Positions 25,087 to 63,125 of a DNA stretch of 64,000 bases are shown piece after piece. Every line of letters begins with the position of its first letter. The stretch's first letter is position 1. The stretch comes from Saccostrea echinata (taxonomy: Eukaryota), in NCBI RefSeq assembly GCF_033153115.1, contig NW_026889758.1, forward strand, positions 50,034,001 through 50,098,000, read 5' to 3'. The notes under the pieces were generated by a model that was given only the letters and a program-made list of their open reading frames with translations, was not told the origin of the DNA and did no database searches. The position numbers and the translations under genes were made by a program.

Positions 25087-27323
25087 ATTTGTGTATGAAC
25101 TTACGTGACTGTGATATTACATTCCATTTTTTTTTTAAAATATTTGAATTTATATTTATATAAAAATATTTATGAGTCATTTCTTATTTATACATATTTT
25201 ACATTTTATACATTTATACAACTTATATTTGATGTTGGTGCTATTCATTGTTCAGTATTTGCCCAACGTCGTTTTACTTGAAAGAAATACTAAGTATTCA
25301 TGATTGTATGTGAACTCATCCATGACTCCCTTGAAATAAATTTTCAAATGTGATTTATTTTTGCTTTCTTCTCTGTTTAATAAAATAAGTTGTTTACTTT
25401 GACAGCTGTGACCGTGTAAGTCCTTTGGGGACTTAACTGATTTTAATTAACTAAGAAAAAAATAAACAAATAAAATCTTAGAAGTTCTGAACATTTAACA
25501 TTCACTTTTATAATGACAGCGATTTTCCGGATCTGATTATGAAACCTCACCTGGTTTCTTTTTTAGTCTAAATTCGATACATCCGATGTCGATTTTGTGC
25601 TACTGTACGAAACGATTTATCATTTTCTTGTTAAAAATGATTAGAGAATGGCCAAATTGAACAGTTGAAAGATAAATGGTTTGATTTTTTTTTATAAGTT
25701 TAAATGATACTTTGATATGATAACTATAATAACATCCACGGACCGATTATTATCACTTGATCATCAAGTTGATGGATATAACATGTAAGCACAGGGGCTT
25801 GCTCCCGGCTTATAATAATTTATGAAGGACATAAACAACGTACCTTACCTACTGATAATTTTTCAAGATATTCTTAATTTAAGATTATAGTGCCATCAGA
25901 TGTTCGTAGGCAAAAAATCAGCATGCATTACCGGAGGTTTTGAAAAGATATCAATTGATGAAAATTTCAAAGAAAAATATACAAAAAATACTAAACATAT
26001 ATTCTAGATGTTTTGTTTATCCAAAGTTGTTTTAGAAGAAGTGTACAACAGCATATATAGACATTAAATTATAGCACACAGTTCCTTTAAGTATTGGAAC
26101 TCTTTAACTCCAGGGAAAAAGACAATAAAGTTCAAACTACGTTGTGTATGTCCTTAAAAAAATCACATACGTATTACCTAAACAACAGTATTACATATAT
26201 GACTTTTTAATAAATCATAATTACAAGCCTGGAGCAATCCCCTGTGGTGTAAGGATAGGGACAGTACAGTTGTTTCCTAGTAGCGAATATTTGCCAGCAT
26301 CGAATAATATTTTATTTAAATATTCTTGAAAAATGAGGGGTTTCAAAATTTCTTACAAGGTGAATACAATAAAAGGATTAACATTTTACCCCTGTGTAGT
26401 GTCTTTGTAGCATATGAATGATTATTTTCCACAATATTTACAAAACTAAAAAATGAATTCAGAACTAGGAAAATAGGGAGGTGTTGTAAATGACATCTCT
26501 GTGCCTGTACCATTCAAATTTGGTACCACTAATTTGAAAAGCATAGAAATACAAATAACAACCAAGAACATTTGGAACTTCGACCTTGTAGGTTGAGTGC
26601 ATGACAACAACAAACCAATTTGCTACTGGTAAAACAACTGTATTCAAGTTGATCCCTTTGCAAGACCAATCTCAGTTGTAAATTCCAAAAATACTTTTAC
26701 AAGAAAATTTTGAGTTTATCAGGACGAAAAATTTTGAAAGGAATTGCTGACAGGTATGGTCTATTGCAAGAGTGACCCTTCTTTTTATTGTTTCAAAATT
26801 TTATAATGAAAAGGGGATTAACTCAAAAATTTTCTTCATAAAGAAAATTGAGTTATTATCAATAAAATTGATCAACCAGTAGGACAGTAGCATTTAGACT
26901 AGTGTGGCAGTGCCTGAGAAACTAAATCTTATTTTTGGGGCTCTTCTATACATTACCAATTTTATTTTTAACACTTGCCAATGGATAGTAGCAGTAATCA
27001 GATAATGTTGGGGCTTTCTTACATATTTAGTGTAGATATACTTTCCTCTGGGTTGAAATTCCATGGGTTTATGTTTCCAGTTTAGTTTTCTAGTCCAAAA
27101 ACTAATGAATTTGTATGCAGTTACAATTCAACTAAACATATAGACTGGAAATTAAAACACTAGTTACATGTAGTTGATGAGAGATGTAATTGACCCTTTA
27201 TGTTATTCATGTCTTACAAAATCTGTGCATCCATAGTTTTTCCATGTACAATGTGGTTTTTCAAATCTTGAAAAATTTTCTCAATATTAAACAAATATAA
27301 TAATTAAATTTTAACAGTGATTT

Positions 27324-28929
27324 ATGGAGTCCAAAGTAAAACAGAGAACAAAGGAATGGTTTGACATACGTCAATCAGTTTACCTGACATCATCAAAGTT
27401 TGGAGATGCTCTTGGAGTTGGAATGGGTAAACCTTATGATTTCTTCCTCTCCTTGATGTCAGATGATAATGATGAAGATGAGGAAGAAATAATGGAATCA
27501 TCACATACACAACATGGAATAACGATGGAGGAGATCATCCTGGAATGTTACCACCTTCTGACAGGGCACAAGACAAGGGAGTCTGGTTTTTGGGTGTCCA
27601 GGGACAGGATCCTTCAAGATCTGATAGGTACATCTCCAGATGCAGTCGTTGTGGATGATCAAGAGGAAGACATTGGGTTGTGTGAATTTAAGGCTCCTAT
27701 ATACAGAATGTACAAGACAGATAATACAGTACAGGGTAATTTAGTCATTTATATTTGTAAATACAAGGTAAATTCTAAGAGCAAGGTATTTACATTTGCT
27801 AGTGCAAGTCAAAAATTTCTTTGTACATTTTTGTACACACAGTTTAGTGCAAAGAATCTTCTGCCCAACAAGACATATTGTTATAACATATTATTGAAAG
27901 TAGTAACCTTTTCTTATCTCCTGATCTAATATTAAGCACTGCATCCAAAAAAGAAGGGAAAAAAGCCTTGGGAACCAAACCTGTCTATTATTTCTACTAT
28001 ATCTTTATTTGAAAAGTGGCAATGATTTTCTTTACAATTTCCATTATTTCAGGTATACCTCGACATTATATGGCCCAGATACAGGGGCAGCTGGCCATCA
28101 CAGGACTTCCATGGTGCAATTTCTTGGCTGTTTGTAAAAATACAAAAGAAATCATGTTAAAAAAAGTATATTTTCACCCAGAATACTGGAACAATGTAGA
28201 AAAGATTCTGAAACAGTTCTGTTATGCTTTACAGGTAAGCTGTGCAGCACAAAAGGTGTTAGTACACATATGACAGGCATTATACTTACAACTTTGAATA
28301 CAATCATTTTATATTCACTTACAATATATTGTAATAAACTTAAGTTCTGTGCACATACATGTACATATATCTTTAAAACAAATATGGGAACTTTTAATAC
28401 AGAAACTATGTATCTTTAGATAAAATAGGTGAATATTTAAAGCAGAAATTCGATTTTTATAATAAAGGTCAAATTAACAATATGATTGTCTAACAATTTT
28501 AAATAGAATTGAATAAGTGTTGACAAACTCCTTGATATTGTTTTTTTTTTTTTCAAATACATGTATGTAATATAAATCTTATTCACTCTGTATGAGTAGG
28601 ATGCCAGATTGAGGAAAGAGTTGGGTTATGATCCACTGGATTTTGAGGGAGCAAGGAAACTAGAAACTTGGCCAGTACAAATAGATTATCTACCTGGTGA
28701 GCTGTCAATCAAAGTTGAGGACCTCCTCCAAATTGACAAACGCAAGCGCTTCAGTGGTCCATCCAATGTTTGGCTGTCATTTGATTTCCTGATTGGTCAG
28801 TCTTATTCTCTACCTCCTTGTTTACAGGAATATGCCCAAAAAATGATTAACGAAGTGGATGAACAGTTAAGATGTAAGAGAAGGAAGATCGAAGAGCAAA
28901 CTGTTGTTAACGCAAATGGACGATCATGA
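27324..28929 (+). CDS. YqaJ-like / lambda-exonuclease family PD-(D/E)XK nuclease, 307 aa, three coding exons
   Basis: Exons 27324-27735, 28053-28234, 28600-28929 (924 nt, phases 1 and 0 consistent). Motifs QRTKEWFDIR, LTSSKFG, HGITMEE, GTSPD, CEFKAP, YMAQIQGQL, WCNF. Probable upstream UTR exon ending at 26753. Confidence 0.88.
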
Positions 28930-30572
28930 TAATTTGAGTTATTTGTAATCATTCACAAATTTCATACTAAATTATATTGTTCCATTTCTAAATTTGATTA
29001 ATACTAGGGAATGAATTGGACATCTCTAGCATTCTGTGATAATATCAAACAGTTTGACACATGTTGAATCTAGATTTAGTGAAAGCTTTGTCTGGGCTTG
29101 AAGGTCAAATTGTTTAAATGTCATCTAAAGACATTAAAAATATAAACTTTTTTTATGATCTGAAGATATACTTGACATGTACCAATATCTATGTACTGTA
29201 CTATATATATATTATAGTATATAATCATAATATATATTAATAAATTGTAATTGAATTTTGACATATTACATGTTAAACATGGTAAACATGCTCTTACCCT
29301 GTATTAATGTTTGTAATTCAAAAATAAATCTGTAAGATTCATTTCCTAATGATGCTAATTTGATGATATTTAAATAGAATAGATACAGTATTATGATAGT
29401 ATATATAAGGTCATTAATAACAACGTATTTGTTCTTTCCATCTGTCCATTTAGTATATGTAAATAATATACGAAACTCAGTGTTCACTTACATGTAGCAA
29501 CAATTGTGTTAAAATAATTCAAACCTCTCTCTTTGACCTTGTTATTTGGACAATTCTTCCTCTGGGCACCATGGATCTCTGCAGTAAGTTTGAAAGTGAA
29601 AGGTTCAAGAGGTCTTTTAACATGTCCACAGTTTAGCTCACACCTATTACTGTCATTGACCTTTAGAGTTAAGATCATGCCACATGCCTTTCTGTGGCAA
29701 AGATCAAGTGGTAATTCTCATAAACTGTCTATAACTTAGTTTAATCATCATTTGTCTTTGTTCATGATCTTTTAGACCCTCAAAATCAGTGTTCTTTTGA
29801 TGACCACCTTGCATTTCTGTTGCAAATAAGAAATTGAAAATATAAGTAAAGTCAAACCTTGTTATCTAGAACTTGATGGGACCAAGAAAAAACTTCTAAG
29901 ATGTCCAAGCATTTGAATAAGTGGTTGGGACTTCCAAATCACTTCATCATATCCATGGTATTCGAGATATCAGTGTTTGAGATATCTATAAATTTTACAC
30001 ATATCATTGCCTGTGGTTTGACCTTAAATGTTTTGACCTAGAAATCAGTAGGCTTCTTCCTCTTGCTCTTATACATCTCTCTGCATCTCTCTGCAACATT
30101 GACATGAATTATAATATGGGCCAGCTTCTACAGTTCCTTGCAACTTTGATCTGAGGGGATAATTAATATAGAGAGGAAAATAATTTTTAACACATTCCAT
30201 ATATTCATTTATCTTCTTCAGTTGTAATCTTGTATTCTCAACTACCCCCCCCCCCTCCTCAAAATCCTCACCACAAGTACAAAAACCAGTTATAATGGTA
30301 CATATTCCCTTGCAAACTTTGTTATTGGGGGATAATAAATGGCATTTTTATGTCAAAGTATTTATGAGAATTTTTTTTTTAACAAATTACTAATTGAAAC
30401 TTCAGTAATCAAAATAGCAAATCTTATGTTCACATTAATTTATTGAAATGTCAATAATGACAATTTACAATAATAATATTTACATGTACATTGGTATGGT
30501 TCATCACTCATGATAATGTACAGAACACAGACTGAATATTTACTGGAGTGACAGTTTTTTTGTGACTTGAAT

Positions 30573-33500
30573 TTATCTTCTGTAGCGATATCGTTTAAAA
30601 TGGAACCACAGTTGGAAAATGTTATTCTGAAACTGACAACGAAATCCATGTTTGTAAGAGTATTCCCACTCTCTGTGTACAATTTTGAAGGCAATGTCCT
30701 GAAAAGTAAAGATACATGAAAAGCTTTGTTCCTCATCTACGAATTTTGAGACATTCATCGACATTCTTTGAATTAATCAGGAGAGGAAAATTTCAGGGTT
30801 GAACAATGTTTTCCTTCGTTGAAACCAAGAATGGGAGACATAACAAGCAATAACATCTGAAATTATGCACTTTCCTCAAACATAGTTTGAAAACATTACT
30901 TTAATTTTTCATTTTAACATAGTGCTCATAATTGTGTAATTATACACAATGAAAAAATTCATTGCAGTTTTTGAAAATGTGTAGTAAAAAGTACATTGTG
31001 CTTACTTCATAAGGTGGCCCAGCATGAAATCTTAGAACAGCAAAATCTTTGTTGTCTTCTATAGGTGTCTGAAGTAGAAACATTCATTAATATAATTATA
31101 CACAGGCAAGGATGTTTTTGGTCGAACTGAAGAAAAAACTCACAATATTGTAAGGAGATATTTGTATCTTCATATTTTTGTAAAATTCAGTTACTTACTA
31201 ATGTGTACTCGGGGGTATCTGTCTTGTCAATCAAATCTGGATAAAATATCTGAAAATAAAAAAGGAGACCCATGTCCCACAAAGCTACCTGATTCATCAG
31301 TTAACAAAGTTTAAAGGGTCATTTCATGACTCTAGTAACTTATGGTTGCTTGTGCAGCAAATTGTAATCTTGCTGTTCTGATATAGATTTTTTTATGAGT
31401 TTTGTTTCTTACATAACCTTTGTCAAACTGTGATTACCTAGTCCTATTGTGGCCCAACCCAAGCTATGAGAACCATGGTTTCTCCACAACATCAGGATGT
31501 ATGCACATTAAACTACGTGTATCTAAATGTAGCTCTGCTGTTCTTGAAGAATGTGAGATATTGACTAATTTTTAAACATTTACATCATCTATTTGCAGCC
31601 CCACCCTAGCCTGTGGGGCATGATATAAACAAGCATAAATCTACATTATACGAGAATGCTTATGTATAATGCTAATGCAAACAGTTGTGACTCTGCTGAC
31701 TCTGAGAATCAAAAAGTTAAAAGATTCTTTTCCATATTTCAAATATTAATTTTGAACCCCCTGTTGTGAACCCACCCTGCCCTAGGGACCATGATTTGTA
31801 TAAATTTGAATCTATTATTTGAGAATGCTCACCAATTTTTCAACCACTTATGAGCTGGCTATAAATTTTATTTGATGAAATACAAAATTCATTCATGGAA
31901 AAAGTTTTTTAGAATGATAAAAATTAAAAATGTGTCTGCAACATATACATGTACTGTATTCAACAGTATATTGATAGGTATTAAACTAAAAAAAAATTCA
32001 ACATTAATTGTGATACGGATAAGGTTTGATTTCAGAATTATATCCTCTTTGCATAAGTAATACATGTAAATGAAGAGGTACCAGTAATTGAATGAATAAG
32101 TGCAAAATAAAATGAATGAAAAGTAATACATGTAAATTAAGCAGTATTGTACATTTTACACAGCTTAATGTTAAGAAAATCCTACCCTACATGTATTTTA
32201 CAATTAACTAATAATTTCCCCTAAGAATGGAGTAAAGCCCTTCATTTGAGCAAACTTTAATCCTCCTAACCGAAGGATACATGTACTTTGTACAAGATTT
32301 GGTTGAAATTCTCATGGTGAATCTGAAGAAAATGTCAAAAAGTGATTTGATAACAGACAGATACATGGAATGATAGATGGCTAACAAACAAACTTCAATC
32401 AGAAAAAAATCACTCAAGCCCTAAGCTCCTGTGAGCTAAGAATGAAACATGAATTTAAAGCAATATGAGCTGCATTTTTGAGAATTTTATTTTGCTGTTA
32501 AAATGTGCTGTTATGATGTAACTGTATGTAACTTAAACTTTTATGATCAACTAGAATAAAATAAAGTATTAAATTATTAAAGTATTAAAGTATTAATGCA
32601 GCTAATAAAAGTGTTCCATTTAAACCTGCAAAATTTACAAAATCACAACGAAAAAATAAACAAAGACCAAAATGGATGACTACAGATTGCTTACTCCTAC
32701 GAAAAGAAGTTAGAAATTTAGGGAAGAAAGTACACAAATATCCAAACAACTGTGAACTAAAACATGCCTTTGCAAAATGTAGAAAAGATTATAATAAACT
32801 AAGGAAAAGTCTTAAATCTAATTTTTACAATAGTATTGCAGAAGAAATTAACACGCTCTCGCCACAAAACTCCAGTAAATTTTGGAATAAGATAAAAGAA
32901 AATAAATCAAAGAAAACTAATGCAGAAACAATTGGAATTTCAGAATTCGTTGACCACTACAAATCCTTACTGAACATTCAATATACTGATGAAGAGAGCT
33001 TGAAATACAAGTACACTGAACTAAATACTGAACCAAATCCATTAGACTTTTTGTTTACTCAAGATGAAATAGAACAAAGCATTTTAAAGCTGAAAAATGG
33101 TAAAAGTGCTGGGCCTGACTTAATTTTAAATGAGTTTATTAAAACAAACAATACTACCCTTTTACCTGTCCTTACAAAACTGTTTAATATTCTACTTAAA
33201 AATGGAAAAATGCCCAAAGAATGGAACCTTTCACTTATAACATCATTATACAAAAATGGTGATCCTAATAATACAAACAATTATAGGGGTCTCAGTGTTG
33301 CAAGTTGTTTAGGAAAACTTTTTACAGGCCTTCTACAGAAACGCTTAGATAATTATCTTGAGTCAAATAACCTACTAAGTCAATATCAATCTGGATTTAA
33401 AAAAGGTCATAGGACCACTGACAATATATTTGTACTAAAAACACTTGTAAACAAATATCTTTATACAAAGAAACAGAATTTATATGTGTGCTTCGTAGAT

Positions 33501-36500
33501 TTTTCAAAAGCATTTGATACTGTGTGGAGATCTGCACTTTTATACAAATTGAATAAAAAGGGTATTGGTGGTAACTTTCTCAAACTTTTGACAGACATGT
33601 ATACAAATACATACTATTCTTGTAAAAAGGACAATCAAATGAGTGAAAAATTTAAAGCTAATAGAGGAGTCAAACAAGGTGATAATTTAAGTCCAACACT
33701 TTTCAATATCTTTGTTGATGATTTTGTGAATTATCTTAAAAATGTAAGCACATATCCTGCATATCTAGATACTATGCCAATAAATCATATGTTTTTTGCT
33801 GATGATCTGGTCCTTGTATCAGAATCAGAAGTTGGTCTACAAAACTGTATAGATGTTTTAGGAAAATATTGTTCAGACTGGAAATTGTGTGTTAATATGG
33901 ATAAAACAGATGTTATGATTTTTTCAAGAAAAACAGATGATGAAACATCATTTAGATTTTATTACAATCACCAAATGATTAACATAACGAATGAATATAA
34001 ATATTTGGGTGTTGTGTTCAGATCTGATGGAAAAATGAAATTTGCAGCTGAACAACTATCAGAATGTGCTAGGAAAGCATATTATGCTATTAAATCAAAT
34101 TTTCCTGCAAACATTAATTTTTCAGCTGAAATTATGTTAAAATTATACCAGTCAATGATAATACCAATTATTACATATGGATCTGAAGTATGGATAACTG
34201 ACTTCAAATGTGATTTAATGTCTTCAGACCAATTTCCTTTTGAAAAAACACAACACTTAATATTTAAAGACATACTAGGGGTACATAGAAAGGCATCAAA
34301 TCTTGCTGTTTTATGTGAATTGGGTCGTTTTCCTTTGTACTATTTATGTTATGAATATATGTTTAAATATTTTAAGAGACTTAAGGAAATGGAAAACAAA
34401 CATGATTATAATAATTATTTAGTGATTTCTGCATTTAAAGAAGACAAAAAACTTGTATCTAGAATATCTTGGCAAAGAAAACTGTCTTCATTACTACAAA
34501 AATTAAATATCACTTCTTTGGATATTTCTCACACAACCTTGAAAAACAAATTACAAGAGCATTACCTAAACAAGATACATGAACAACTGAAAAATATAAG
34601 CAAATCAAACTCTGGAAAGTTAGCTTTTTATAGTAAAATTGTAATTCAAAATGAATACAAATTGCAAAGTTATTTAAAGCTGCCTTTAAAGAAAAGTTTT
34701 AGATCTGTATTAACAAAATTAAGGATCAGTGCCCATCCATTATATATTGAAACGGGCAGATACTGTAAACCCCCTATTCCTAGAGAAAAACGTTTATGCT
34801 ATTCATGTAAATTATTTATTGAAGATGAAAAACATTTTGTTCTATACTGTTCAAAGTATGACCAATTTAGAGGCAATTATACTGATATATTTAATGTAAA
34901 CACATATACTAGTGATAATCCCATTAGAAAAATTGTCAATCCTACAAATATTACAACTGCTAGAAGGATATGTTGTTTTTTGAAAAAGTGCTTTGACACC
35001 AGAAAAGAAAGTCAGCAATGAATACTTAGAAATATGTGAATATACTCTACATTATTTTGTTCAACTCACATTTGTCACTTTGTATATGTATGTATTATTC
35101 TTGTTAATTCGTTTTATGTCATGACTGTATGCCGACATGGTAATTGTCAATAAAGTGAATTGAATTGAATTAAATTGTTACAGAATGTACAATAGAATGT
35201 ACAGTATTATATAAGAAATCAATATTGTACAGGACCACAATAATGTAATTTTGCTTCAATCAAAGCTTATAAATAGTTCTTCCGTCGCAAATATGAACAA
35301 CAGACGTTCACAAACATTCTTTTTTCTGTCACTGAAATAGTTAATTACAATTTTGCGACAAAAAAATTTCGACATCAAAGTTGCAGCTCATATTGCTTTA
35401 ATATTCAATATGAATACCCTGTACCTGTAAAATTAAGAGTTATTGGGTGTCAATATTGTAATGGAATAAATTCTTACATTAAATTTGTATCCCTGTACAA
35501 TCTTGGGTGGAGGATTATCAATGTCATAATGGGTCTGATTGTACTTGTTCCACTCAAAGCCAGTGTGAACTCGGTTAAAGAACCGTGGTTTACGAGGACG
35601 ATACTTGTCAGACCATAAAAATTTCTGGTGCTCCGTAGGAATTTCTACACTGAATGTTGCCTCATCATCATTCATTCCCTCCCTGGCTTTCTTCTCAAAT
35701 TCTGTCTCTCCATCCAACTAAAGTGAAATACAGAATTTATCATATGACTTAACTATGAAGCTATTGCAACTGTACCATGACCTATCCAGTAAATAACATG
35801 TAAACTCTACCCTGAATTAGATAAACTAGATAACACTTACAACTACTGAAAGCAAATCTTGACCAGTTAAATGGATATCAACTACAGCTAATAATTTTAC
35901 TCTTACCCTGACTCGCCCTGTTGATAACACTTGCTGCCTGGCCAGCTCCAGTTTTCTCATGTCATCTGTGGGGTCATACACAACAGTATCAATCTCTAGT
36001 TCACTCGGCCTGAGTAGTTTAGGGGAGTAATTTCCAGCTTCATAATCAATGTAAGATTGATCCTCCAAGTCTTCTTCTGTAATCAGTGCCTCATCACTGT
36101 AACAATAAAATAAGTTGTAGTTTATCATGCCTTATCCTCATTATCAAATCATTTCATACACTATGTGTTGTGGTTTTCAACTGCATGTCACAATAAATAT
36201 TCAAGAAAGGAAAATCATCAGCGGGGCATCAGCGAATAGATTTTATGTCATATATATTATTATATTATTATATATTTTAATGTAGATGTACAATTACATA
36301 ATCTATAGTTTATTAATTTATTTATTAAAAGATGTTAGCTCTTATGTACTCTTGAATTTTAGGTCTCATTTGGAAATTTTTTTAAAAAATTTGTATCTCC
36401 AGTAGACCTGTTCTCAGTGTTTAATAAGGTAGTTTCAGTTAGGATCTTACTCTTCATCATCTGCCTCTGTACTAGGTCCAGGACGGGGCTCCTCCTCCCC

Positions 36501-45835: not shown

Positions 45836-48800
45836 ATGAATATCTGCGATCAGGTTAGTGATTTAATACGGTTGTGGAATATAGTTTACATTTACATATA
45901 TTAGAGTACTAGTATCTTGCATTTTTTATTTAATGTAATTGATTTCGGCCTGAAATTTAGGACAGGAAATGTGAATTTTTGGGCGTTTTTGGCTACTATG
46001 CTTGAACTCAGAAAAATAAAATATTTTTAGGTGAAAAAGGACTTTGTCTAACAGAGAAATAAAGATGCCTTAAGTATATTTCTATTTCCTTGGTCATATT
46101 TGATTAATTGTATATGTGCACTATGTTAGGTACATTTTCATGATTTTGATATATAATTCATTTGTTGATTAATAGATTTGAAATTGGGGAATTGGTAAAT
46201 TGGGTATAACAGCCAAATTTCAACCGATGTTGCAACGAGGGTTTAATAAATCACTAAGTATCTCTAAATATTCGTAGCCAGTACATAAGAAACTACTTGT
46301 TTGATAATGGATCACTGATTCGTCACTGTTCTTTTAACGTCACAATATCAATTATGACGTCAGTATGTTTGATGTTTTGACAACGAATGGCGGAACATTG
46401 TAGTCATATTCTTTTCGATGATTCTATTCTGCAAAAGTGAAATTGTGTCTGGAAAAAGCTATGATAAGTGTTAACCAGGTTAGTTATCAAGCCAGTAATA
46501 GGCAAAATATGTTCTTCCAACATTGGTGGGCGTGAGTTTAAGGTTTTGATTTAGTTTGCTTACTCATGTTTTAAAAAATTATATCAATATCAGTTTCAGT
46601 CATGATAAATTGAAACCAGGTAATAATATATGATGTCCTACATATTTATGCTTTGGTATTTTACCATATGTGCGACACTTTATAATTACTGATATTTACA
46701 TGCTACCCCCCCCCTTTTTAAAAATTATAAGACGCTGAATTTTTAAAAGTGTTTCTTGTAAATGATTAATATGTGTCTTGTCTTTGTAGAACGAAACTGA
46801 AACATTGGATTTTGGGAAAGAGGCTGTTAAAAGTGTGGTAAGTGCAGCTATCAAATATGAAAAACCTACAAAAAAAGGGGGGGAGCGGTGCTACAAAATA
46901 CACGAATCGAACTTTGTTGCTAGGTGTATAAAATAAAGCAATAATTGATATTTCATAAGGGATTTCATGCTAACATTTATTTCCAGGATGAGAAGTTGGC
47001 TATTCTCAAATTCCACTATAGCTGGGCTGAAATGGTAGAAAGGGTGGAAGAGGAGAAATTAAATGAAGAAAAGGTGAGATATAAAAGTCTTCCTCCCAAA
47101 ACTTGTTCTCGGTAACTATTCTTATTAATTGGTTCTAAATATTTTGTTCCTCGAATCTGGAGAAAGAGGGTTAACACATGAAATAACAATGCACGGAGTT
47201 TTGTTTTGTTTTTCCTCAAATTTATCTTTGATAATCAAAACTAAAATTTTAACATTTTTCAAACGACGTTTCAAATTATTGAAACTTAATGCACACTTCC
47301 TCTTGTAGAATGAAACCCAACTGAATTTCGGGGAAGAGATTAAGAAGACTGTGGTAGGTGATTTTTTTTGTACTGATCGCCTTTGGAATTAATATATATA
47401 CATGTATATATATTAGTGTTGTCAACGAATAACCGGTTAATCGTCAAACGAAGCGAATATAGGTTAGTAAAGTTGTTACTCGGTTACTCGGACATAGACA
47501 CAAAAGTAGAAAAGAAATATTATTTTGTTCATAAATTAATACTTACATATGTCCCTCATTTTATTTACCGTTATTTAACGACTCAGTTTTCACAGTTTAT
47601 CTAATTGATGGCTTATATTTCTAAGGAGTGTATATACAAGTTTAGAAGATCTGAGTTAATTATTAATGACCTCACTTAAACTGTGCGAGTCTGCATTACA
47701 AGATTAAAGAAGATGCCTCCACAGCATCAAAAACGTATATTCCGAAACATTTTAAAAGAATTTAAATCTGTAACGCGCAAAAATACTTTAAATAGAATTA
47801 ACATACACCGGAACATAACTCTTAAACCAGCATATAGGATATCCTGCAAAATGTTCAACCAACTTTTACGGGATATTTGAGAACAAATTTGTTAGGAAGC
47901 TTTTGAATTTTACAATAAAAAATAAATTACAGGCCGGTATTTAATGATAAATAATGGAAATTGTAACGACGTTACAAATATTACAGTTAATATTGAATAT
48001 ATATACCGCAAGCAAAGGATGTTGGAGGTCTAAAGAGAAACCATCCGAGTAATGGGGTAATCGATCGGAAAAGTAAGCGAGTAACAGGTTACTAAAAATC
48101 GTTTTGACAACACTAATATATGTAATTAAATTAAAGTAATTACATCTAAATTTAAATTTTAGGAAGAACATTTGGCCATTCTAAATTTAAAAGATGAGAT
48201 GGTTGAAAGGAAGGAAGGAAATATAAAGACAAAAGCAAAACAACGAACATATATTAAACCGAAGAAAATGAGACATAACAAAAAGTTAAGAAAGGAGAGA
48301 GAGGAGGAAAACTTGAAGAAAGAGATATTGAAAAAACAAGTGGAGATGTTGAAAAAGGAAGTAGAGAAGAGATTAAAGACAGATGAGAAAACTAGGGAAA
48401 ATAGAAGAGAGAAATTAGGGTCAAAAGAGAAAAATGAGCAAGAATCAGGAACAGAAAAAGAGGACCAGAACAAACTAAAAACAGAAAGAAAGGAGAAGAA
48501 ATCAGAGGTTGACAAAGCAGTGATGAAGTCAGAGGACAAAACACCTGAGGCTGAACAAAGGATTAAAAAGTTGGAGGCAGAAAAGAAGGGAGAAACAAAA
48601 GAAAGCAAAGAGGGGGAGATGTCAGATATGGAAAAAGATACAGAAGAGAAAATAAACACACCAGAGAAAGGCAAGGAGAAATGGAAGCCAGATACAGAGG
48701 AAAGGATAGACACATCAGAGAAAGACAATGAGAAGGAGAAATCAGAAACAAAAGAGAAGATAGATACATCAGAGGTAGACAAATTGGAAGAGAAGTCAGG

Positions 48801-61024: not shown

Positions 61025-62320
61025 CTAACAGCCACACGGAAAATTAGGTTGACACCTACCAGTGTTTTGGTCGCAAAAACCTGAAAAATGTTAAAATAGA
61101 TTGTATTAAACCAAAGAACAGTCTTAAAATTAAAGGTTAATTTCAACATGCTTTTAGAATACTTTTTGAATATCGATATCGTATGATACTGTATCGATGT
61201 AAAATGAGCAGAAATTGTGTCACCATATATAAAATCGCAAACAAATACATGCATGAATACACTTTTTTGGAACATTTTAACCCCGTCGAAAATGCCTAAT
61301 TAGCTACAATGTAAACATTGTTTATTATATTTTTAGTTGATCTGTTAGAGCATGCTGATTTTTTGTTTTCTCGGTCGATTCTATTTTTTTTTTTTCATTA
61401 AAAAAACAAAAGAAAGACAATTCAAGCATGCATAACGGCTTTAGATACGATCTAATAAATAAGAAAAATTGAGGTTTTAAAAAGTCGGGTTACCAGAGAA
61501 AATGTACACTATCACCATATGCCTTTTAGACCCCCCCCCCCCAAAAAAAAAAACATTTCTGAAGATAGTAAGGACTGATTGAATCTCTATCTTTAACCAG
61601 ATTTAAATTATGTTAGGATTTTCACTGTATTCTGTCCGTTACTTTTTTTTTATAACTATCATCCAAAAAGATATCAAAACATAATTCCCTTCCAACTTAG
61701 TTGGCAGGGATGACTTTACCAAATATCAGTCACCATTCAAGTGGCTGTACGGAGATGGAAGGGAGGTGCGACATTTTATGAGAAAGTCAGAGTTATTTGC
61801 TTGCATAAAAACATATACGATCTTCCATGGTTTGTGGTTTGATATTACACTGTATTTTAATCCAACGAGTTGCGTGATTCCTAGCTGTCCCCGAGCCTTG
61901 GTGAGGGGATAGAAAGTACACAACTCGTTGGATAAAATCATTTCCAACAACAAACCATGGGAGAATCATTTTATCACATGTTTTCAAATGTTTTACATTG
62001 TTTTGGTATATGAATCCATTTTATTTGACTTCATCACTTTCACACAAAAATATTGTGACACCATAACTTCGTGTTGATATGAAAACGATATTTATTTATA
62101 TGACCGAGATCCACTGTATAAAGGAGAAAACATGTGATAAATATATTCCGGTATTTAAGGAAGAAATTCAATAGCTATATCCAAAACTTGAAGTTATACT
62201 GTATAATCTGGGTTGGAACAGTTTATGCTTTATACCTGTAAACCGCTACGCGGTTTATAAATACAAGTTAACTGTTCAACCTAGGTAACTACAATTATAA
62301 CTACTATAATATACATGTAC

Positions 62321-62377
<57 letters not shown>

Positions 62378-63125
62378 AATTCTGATCCGAAACGAGTTTT
62401 CAGCTTCTTGTGAAGCATTCATACCAGGGTGTCCAATGGGGGTTGACAGCAATTTGCTTCTCTTTAGAAATAGGACCACTTCCTCAAATTTCCTTGACAT
62501 GTGAGAAGAGTCAATGAAATGACATAGTGTTGGCAGGTCGTACACTGTGGTGTTAAGGCCCAGTTCTACTCCATTACTAATGCCATCGCCATCAGAATCG
62601 GCTAAGCACAACTCCTTTGTAAACAGATGACGACTTCTTTGAAAATCCTGGAAAGAAGACACATTAATAAAATCTCTCATTTCTTGACATTAAGGACATA
62701 TTTTTCAATCCATTTATTCATTTCACTTTAATTTTTTTTTGTGCCAGCCAGAATCATTTTTATCAAATGAATGTGTTTCCATTAAAGATAAAAGCATAAT
62801 TTATATATTAACAAACGTTTCATAATTTTCATAATTCATTAACTCTTAAGTATATTTAAACCAGTACCTCTAAAGTTTTTTCAAGAGATAATTTAAAAAA
62901 AAATAAAAAGAAACTTATTGGGTCAAGTAGAAGAAAAAAAGTACTCACTCTGCCAAAGTCATTGAGAGGGGTTGATGACGGCCCAGTGTGTCCGACACGG
63001 CTCCAGACGCGCCCGGGACAGCACGGATGTGGGACTCTGTCTCCGTTTAGGATGTGTTCCTTATACCATGAGTGGAAGTGGGCAACTGTCACTAGTAAAC
63101 ACCATATTAAAAGCTTGAAAAACAT
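61025..63125 (-). CDS. Temptin-like secreted protein, 151 aa
   Basis: Exons 63125-62949, 62647-62425, 61080-61025 (456 nt in frame). Signal peptide plus temptin motifs ILNGDRVPHPC, VGH, LNDFGRDF, LCLADSDGDGISNGVELG, HPG. AATAAA (minus) at ~60899. Confidence 0.88.
62323..62375. repeat. (TA)n microsatellite in temptin-like intron 2
   Basis: Direct reading. Confidence 0.95.

Follow-up and report, generated by a model that had tools for sequence, protein, structure and literature searches.

The 64,000-nucleotide stretch of Saccostrea echinata DNA analysed here (the window) contains a real, ancient and uncharacterised host nuclease gene, which belongs to the known YqaJ/lambda-exonuclease family and has a wider range than first proposed. 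The original prediction had presented it as a host gene rather than transposon cargo, and as a candidate new system of molluscs. The first part stands: the gene is transcribed, single-copy and under purifying selection, and we consider it very probably an ancient gene of the host, not cargo. The second part does not. A molluscan novelty is contradicted by orthologues found in five choanoflagellates and a sponge, and instead of a new system the gene represents a variant of a known family. Papers on animal genomes, in the excerpts cited here, count YqaJ genes as cargo of transposons or endogenous viruses (PMC4482050, PMC9587614, PMC10225492, PMC7826175), the last two being bivalve genome papers in which YqaJ is treated as transposon- or virus-related. 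The gene described here departs from this pattern: it encodes a conserved host enzyme that predates animals and is concealed among at least 150 look-alikes. It would add a 5’-end nuclease to the DNA-handling kit of the animal ancestor, it calls for caution with Pfam YqaJ counts, which combine host genes and mobile cargo, and it provides a defined target of 300 residues amenable to study in choanoflagellates, sea stars and oysters.

Gene structure, transcripts and neighbourhood

The nuclease gene lies on the + strand and consists of three coding exons with GT-AG ends, the joined frame of which (924 nt) encodes 307 amino acids followed by a stop. The exon containing the start codon (27318..27735, coding from 27324 to 27735) encodes residues 1-137 and the first base of the G138 codon, i.e. 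the N-terminal part of the nuclease core. It is followed by a 317-nt phase 1 intron within G138 (27736..28052), by an exon encoding residues 138-198 (28053..28234), which carries Q146, a WC motif and the long last helix of the core, by a 365-nt phase 0 intron after Q198 (28235..28599), located at the same position in other animals, and by the last coding exon (28600..28929; residues 199-307), which encodes the family-specific C-terminal extension and a KRRK motif at 28876-28887. The three spliced exons that had been predicted are borne out by sequence contigs: both introns are spliced out in one contig each of runs X1 and X3 (study P1) and X5 (study P2), and contigs of a related organism join both introns in run X6 and the second one in run X7. 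The runs are presumed to be RNA and consist of contigs, which report splicing and not tissue, level or transcript ends; the contig joints nevertheless excise exact GT-AG introns.

The contigs of X1 and X3 also reveal a 5’ non-coding exon missed by the original prediction (25583..25678, + strand, start approximate), which ends at 25678 and is joined to 27318 by removal of a GT-AG intron. It contains three upstream ATGs and a fourth at its very end. Splicing brings this last ATG next to a TGA, giving a start-stop (ATG-TGA) in the 5’ UTR that lies 3 nt upstream of the main ATG, in the same frame, and may dampen translation. The 3’ untranslated region extends from 28930 to the contig limit at 29514 (+ strand), with polyA-type hexamers at 29133, 29239 and 29323.

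As predicted, the gene sits tail to tail with cactin, the C-terminal open frame of which occupies 30573..30776 on the - strand (CactinC E 9.2e-16). The nuclease contigs extend to 29514 and those of cactin to 30455, and thus no overlap is seen between them. The reported absence of terminal inverted repeats (TIRs) and transposases also held: between 24000 and 33000 no convincing TIR pair was found, the 25 longest of 103 pairs being 70-88% AT-rich matches, and no transposase hit was obtained in any of the 11 window ORFs scanned. This is qualified by an 810-residue LINE-type reverse transcriptase frame (32589-35018, + strand; RVT_1 E 1.3e-37) lying antisense between cactin exons. The same 11 ORFs yielded no hit to a single-strand annealing protein gene, the nearest genes being cactin and a multi-VWA gene (22823-25083, + strand). 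Other neighbours are a long repetitive Lys/Glu-rich frame (48163-51090, + strand), a C2H2 zinc-finger gene (53843-57367, - strand) and a temptin-like exon (62279-62689, - strand). Short repeats at about 25825-26157, within the 5’ intron, and at 29850-29984, in the gap between the nuclease gene and cactin, attract many unrelated contigs; the first holds an 88% inverted repeat (25819-25842 / 26138-26161). Neither cactin nor the VWA gene was hit in 51 loci elsewhere (L065-L115), the family loci among them being only 1-7 kb long and none of them a bivalve chromosome.

Active site and predicted fold

Exon 1 alone matches the Pfam YqaJ profile PF09588 with 48.3 bits (E 1.7e-12), and the full-length homologue P0001, to which the closest species-assigned relative (Crassostrea virginica LOC111130584) is 81% identical, does so with 70.9 bits (E 1.8e-19), both above the gathering cut-off of 22. 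The family assignment is thereby confirmed. The curated cut-off of the phage-type subfamily TIGR03033 of NCBIfam (68.05) was not reached by P0001 (45.2 bits), nor by the sponge orthologue (23.2) or two choanoflagellate ones (43.9 and 52.1).

The lambda-exonuclease motifs that had been listed (R16, T22, S24, E69, SPD at 104-106, EFK at 121-123 and Q146-x-x-x-Q150) were all found in place, and HMM alignment to LHK-Exo of Laribacter hongkongensis (3syy) matches them to residues of a characterised enzyme. LHK-Exo is a processive trimer with a phosphate pocket formed by R12, T17, S19, S100 and Q137 and catalytic residues E68, D102, E112 and K114, according to the excerpted text of its structural description (PMC3239189). 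W12-F13, R16, T22 and S24 (27357..27395, + strand), which align with LHK-Exo W8, F9, R12, T17 and S19, are predicted to form the 5’-phosphate pocket and base contacts, with S104 and Q146 (LHK-Exo S100 and Q137) completing the pocket. The catalytic motifs (27528..27692, + strand) place E69, D106, E121 and K123 opposite E68, D102, E112 and K114. All nine pocket and catalytic positions of lambda exonuclease and LHK-Exo are therefore present in the oyster protein. Among 48 aligned rows, D106, E121 and Q146 are found in all 48, K123 in 47, E69 in 46, T22 and S24 in 45 each (three gaps) and R16 in 43 (one K and four gaps). Two sequences near the Octopus orthologue depart from this pattern: P0031 and P0052 have lost E69, and P0031 also K123. 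They are possibly pseudo-nuclease copies, as judged from their sequences, and these losses would make the activity dispensable in some lineage.

Two further features of the original prediction, an acidic insert (D47-E55; 27462..27488, + strand) and the C-terminal KRRK (K291-K294), were located as described. The insert is of variable length, modelled with low confidence, and corresponds to the α3-α4 loop at the channel exit of LHK-Exo, where Arg55 may be in contact with the 3’ strand as it leaves (PMC3239189, in the same excerpt). In most animals the loop, 13-34 residues long, is acidic; of the two choanoflagellates checked, one has a neutral loop. An acidic, variable loop in place of a basic one may mean that threading of the 3’ strand is altered or excluded. 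The KRRK had been read as a nuclear localisation signal (NLS), but only 7 of 29 full-length rows have a basic cluster at the C-terminus, and 2 the exact motif, leaving nuclear import of the family as a whole unsupported. In almost all animal members the first conserved motif comes only a few residues after the start, so that a targeting peptide or presequence would have no space.

The structure model is that of P0001, which shares 95% identity with the oyster protein in exon 1. The model is confident (pLDDT 93.9, pTM 0.87) and has the lambda-exonuclease fold: its best structural match is LHK-Exo (3syy, 3sz4, 3sz5; Z 18.8, rmsd 2.9, 184 residues aligned), followed by phage lambda exonuclease, or Red-α (1avq, 3slp, 3sm4; Z 17.2, rmsd 3.0, 189 aligned), which shares the pocket and catalytic pattern, and by mimivirus R354 (5yet, 5yeu; Z 15.0, rmsd 3.7, 221 aligned), which is alike in motifs as well. 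Foldseek is concordant (E 1.6e-10 against 3syy), and at the sequence level only LHK-Exo and R354 (HMM E 9e-9) are matched in the PDB. Much weaker fold matches are Epstein-Barr virus (EBV) alkaline nuclease (Z 11.0), MGME1 and Exo5 (Z 8.5-9.0) and Dxo1, Rai1 and Dom3Z (Z 4.8-5.6). Despite the common fold, the oyster protein is only about 20% identical to LHK-Exo and lambda exonuclease, and differs from both in being encoded by an intron-containing eukaryotic gene and in carrying a conserved extension of about 100 residues. The human enzymes EXO5, MGME1, DXO and the nuclease domain of DNA2 (Z 4.8-9.0) belong to the same PD-(D/E)XK superfamily and are host enzymes acting at 5’ ends, but at about 10% identity and with much lower Z scores they are not orthologues.

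The extension is modelled confidently within the full protein, where the prediction packs it against the core; modelled in isolation, it reaches a pTM of only 0.34. Since it is confident in the full model and does not fold alone, it probably wraps the core instead of forming a domain of its own. For the isolated extension Foldseek found nothing at E <= 0.001, Pfam did not match the window row (single weak hits only among 18 rows) and Atlas scores all stayed below 0.9, while an Atlas search with the full C. virginica protein returned generic YqaJ clusters only. These null searches do not demonstrate a new fold.

Orthologues, selection and transposon-borne relatives

Orthologues were found in 26 animal species of five phyla (11 bivalves, 5 gastropods, 2 cephalopods, 4 echinoderms, 2 hemichordates, 1 annelid and the sponge Corticium candelabrum) and in the choanoflagellates Codosiga hollandica, Salpingoeca macrocollata, S. 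punica, Hartaetosiga gracilis and Choanoeca flexa, with one locus per species among the matches listed. The Codosiga orthologue aligns over its full length with 35% identity. None was seen in chordates, arthropods, nematodes or cnidarians among the species-assigned hits (30 proteins checked by name, two of the searches being word-limited). When 1.84 billion representatives were searched exhaustively with a profile, 11,520 hits passed E <= 0.001 but only 45 passed E <= 1e-30. Among relatives on 50 viral contigs, the best one is 33% identical over the core in its best segment, no best segment exceeds 35% identity and none extends beyond residue 209; a phage collection gave 56 records, the 25 listed being 24-32% identical over the core only; and a scan of prokaryotic genomes gave 27 pattern matches, none confirmed. 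In databases the orthologues are annotated as ‘uncharacterized’ or ‘YqaJ viral recombinase domain-containing’. No paper on an animal-choanoflagellate orthogroup was found in the openly accessible literature searched, and six orthologue gene identifiers had no associated papers; one source, as excerpted, records the YqaJ-type family in Eukaryota with no detail (PMC3424549).

Trees were built on the core of about 200 residues only. In the most careful one, 71 rows were retained from 104 length-filtered cores after removal of near-duplicates and surplus rows. Eighteen animal rows group with three further rows (support 99/98), and this animal clade groups with the five choanoflagellates and four further rows (97/82), while four of five transposon-type rows from the oyster’s own genome fall in a distant clade (100/99). 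When the three and four further rows were left out, in a 40-row subset, animals and choanoflagellates lay on one side of a branch with support 98. An AU test on these 40 rows rejected a clade of animals with transposon-type YqaJ (p 0.0076) but did not reject one uniting animals, choanoflagellates and transposon-type sequences (p 0.085). The careful tree departs from species order in that the choanoflagellates fall in two parts and the sponge is long-branched within echinoderms. A quick tree of 168 rows supports the wider animal-choanoflagellate group at 84 only. In that tree, the deep branches of which are weakly supported, a giant-virus MAG row and two rows that we take to be plant-like from a motif are placed elsewhere, and the special closeness to plant and giant-virus YqaJ that had been suggested was not found. 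Giant-virus YqaJ proteins are also longer than the oyster nuclease. Stand-alone YqaJ proteins of plants, algae and protists (e.g. At1g67660) are likewise host-encoded lambda-type nucleases, but fall in another clade in the trees, the plant label being presumed from that motif, and have no match to the tail profile described below. Six divergent sequences (P0172, P0173, P0177, P0183, P0195 and P0196) branch inside or beside the animal-choanoflagellate clade and could be other protists or viruses that acquired the gene. Two stand-alone YqaJ genes on gene-dense eukaryote-like contigs (L097 and L099) fall in a separate clade.

Because the C-terminal tail was left out of the trees, it provides independent support for the animal-choanoflagellate group. 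A tail profile built from animals only and run against 316 proteins finds the sponge (E 2e-17) and three of the five choanoflagellate species (E 4.7e-6, 5.4e-5 and 0.0023); besides P0172 and P0075, from the family clade, no further protein falls under E 0.18. We propose, from sequence comparison, that animals and choanoflagellates form one orthogroup with a shared C-terminal extension.

Gene structure was compared across genomic loci. A GT donor directly follows the Q198 codon in 31 of 32, although 27 of these loci come from one group of close relatives and are not independent. The G138 intron, judged from read-through proteins, is confined to oyster-like sequences. In many other animals residues 1-198 are encoded by a single exon, which suggests intron loss. 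Three animal loci (L113, L115 and L105) have several extra introns, one of them after Q148. Selection was estimated on 20 of the 27 close-relative animal loci, near-duplicates having been removed, using pairs with dS between 0.1 and 1.5: the median dN/dS is 0.15 (0.09-0.28; 171 of 190 pairs). Of the 26 differences listed between the oyster gene and that of the related organism, over partial cover, 23 are synonymous, against 22% of sites being synonymous; in comparisons of the oyster gene with distant animals, dN/dS is saturated.

The gene is also single-copy. In the genome searched (923 Mb, 425 contigs) the only DNA match is the nuclease locus itself, with no dispersed near-identical copies, and the next-best protein match is 28% identical. 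The latter lies within a 1346-residue single frame (L002; G000:C12:12890943-12894332) in which a YqaJ domain precedes a transposase-like RNase H domain; it has a long tree branch and is possibly KolobokE-like or another fused transposase. By contrast, YqaJ cargo of the ISL2EU (PHIS) and KolobokE types, a member of the same Pfam family, is abundant and multi-copy in this genome. The Pfam YqaJ profile has at least 150 matches (150 of 150 scored, from 282 candidates), the nuclease gene included. Among 12 YqaJ loci compared, six belong to one family (L005-L009 and L011), 98-99% identical, apparently young and spread over several contigs, and two more pairs are 97-99% identical. One sampled locus, L013, faces a DDE_Tnp_4/HTH_Tnp_4 ORF, and a YqaJ gene facing a transposase is the ISL2EU layout (PMC4482050, as excerpted); KolobokE transposons likewise carry a YqaJ-type nuclease (PMC9587614, as excerpted).

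Proposed function and its alternatives

On balance, we favour, by a modest margin over even odds, an uncharacterised choanozoan 5’-phosphate-dependent 5’-to-3’ exonuclease that processes DNA ends in genome upkeep. By analogy with LHK-Exo and lambda exonuclease, R16, T22, S24, S104 and Q146 would hold the 5’ phosphate, D106 and E121, together with E69, would coordinate two Mg2+ ions, K123 would activate water, and the 5’ strand would be trimmed stepwise to leave a 3’ overhang. On the same analogy the enzyme may plausibly form a trimeric ring, which would make it processive. In the model, the extension packed on the core may tune the oligomeric state or bind a partner. In Red/RecET-type modules the exonuclease is accompanied by a strand-annealing protein; as no such partner gene was recognised nearby, among the 11 window ORFs scanned, the enzyme more likely serves the repair or clean-up of the host than a self-contained module. 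A role in upkeep is favoured because the gene is steadily single-copy and under purifying selection, a better fit, we infer, to housekeeping than to an arms race. Against this reading stand the use of the same fold by RNA and single-strand enzymes (EBV alkaline nuclease, Exo5, MGME1, Dxo1/Rai1), the non-conserved KRRK, the acidic exit loop, the imperfect species order of the careful tree, the loss of E69 in two sequences and the deep link to transposon-type sequences that the AU test does not reject (p 0.085). More speculatively, and in our judgement improbably, a choanoflagellate-like ancestor may have bequeathed to animals a lambda-type exonuclease that is ring-shaped and processive and stands for a pathway so far unrecognised, be it repair of the single-strand-annealing type or the destruction of linear DNA from invading viruses. 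Loss from vertebrates, insects and nematodes would then explain why it escaped notice, and the acidic exit loop and the C-terminal wrap would act as a built-in brake.

The strongest competitor, although we think it unlikely, is a cell-autonomous defence or scavenging nuclease acting in the cytosol or nucleus on foreign linear dsDNA, such as that of giant and herpes-like viruses or ingested or transposon DNA. Every species-assigned carrier is aquatic, the protein opens straight at its core with no conserved NLS, the four upstream ATGs could keep translation low, and the PDB title of mimivirus R354, the third structural match, assigns it to a virophage-resistance element. Whereas expansion and variability are frequent among immune genes of oysters, this gene shows one locus per species, a dN/dS of about 0.15 and no sign of expansion. 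If defence were nonetheless its role, the enzyme would be relevant to oyster antiviral biology.

An enzyme of RNA or DNA-RNA hybrids, trimming or decapping 5’-monophosphate ends in the manner of DXO/Rai1 or herpesviral alkaline nucleases, is less probable still. The fold and phosphate pocket are common to EBV alkaline nuclease and, weakly, to Dxo1/Rai1/Dom3Z, an RNase activity is listed for the viral alkaline exonuclease family (PMC3424549, as excerpted), and the acidic exit loop is unlike that of LHK-Exo; but the nearest structures are dsDNA exonucleases, with far higher Z scores, and the only sequence hits in the PDB are LHK-Exo and R354. We give little credence to an organellar (mitochondrial) DNA-maintenance nuclease similar to MGME1 or to the phage-related exonuclease of plants: MGME1 and Exo5 share the fold and a homologue of At1g67660 is found in the tomato chloroplast stroma proteome (PMC10493611, as excerpted), but the animal proteins lack room for a presequence and the plant-like rows, so labelled from a motif, fall in another clade.

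Recent transposon or virus cargo, or domestication of such cargo within molluscs, is hardly credible, since the dispersed YqaJ copies that share the genome, one of them facing a DDE_Tnp_4 transposase, are set against a single-copy gene with no TIRs, a common intron position, sponge and choanoflagellate orthologues and the AU rejection at p 0.0076. Capture by molluscs is refuted by these orthologues, only a pre-choanozoan capture being compatible with them: domestication, if there was any, predates the split between animals and choanoflagellates, with no donor identified.
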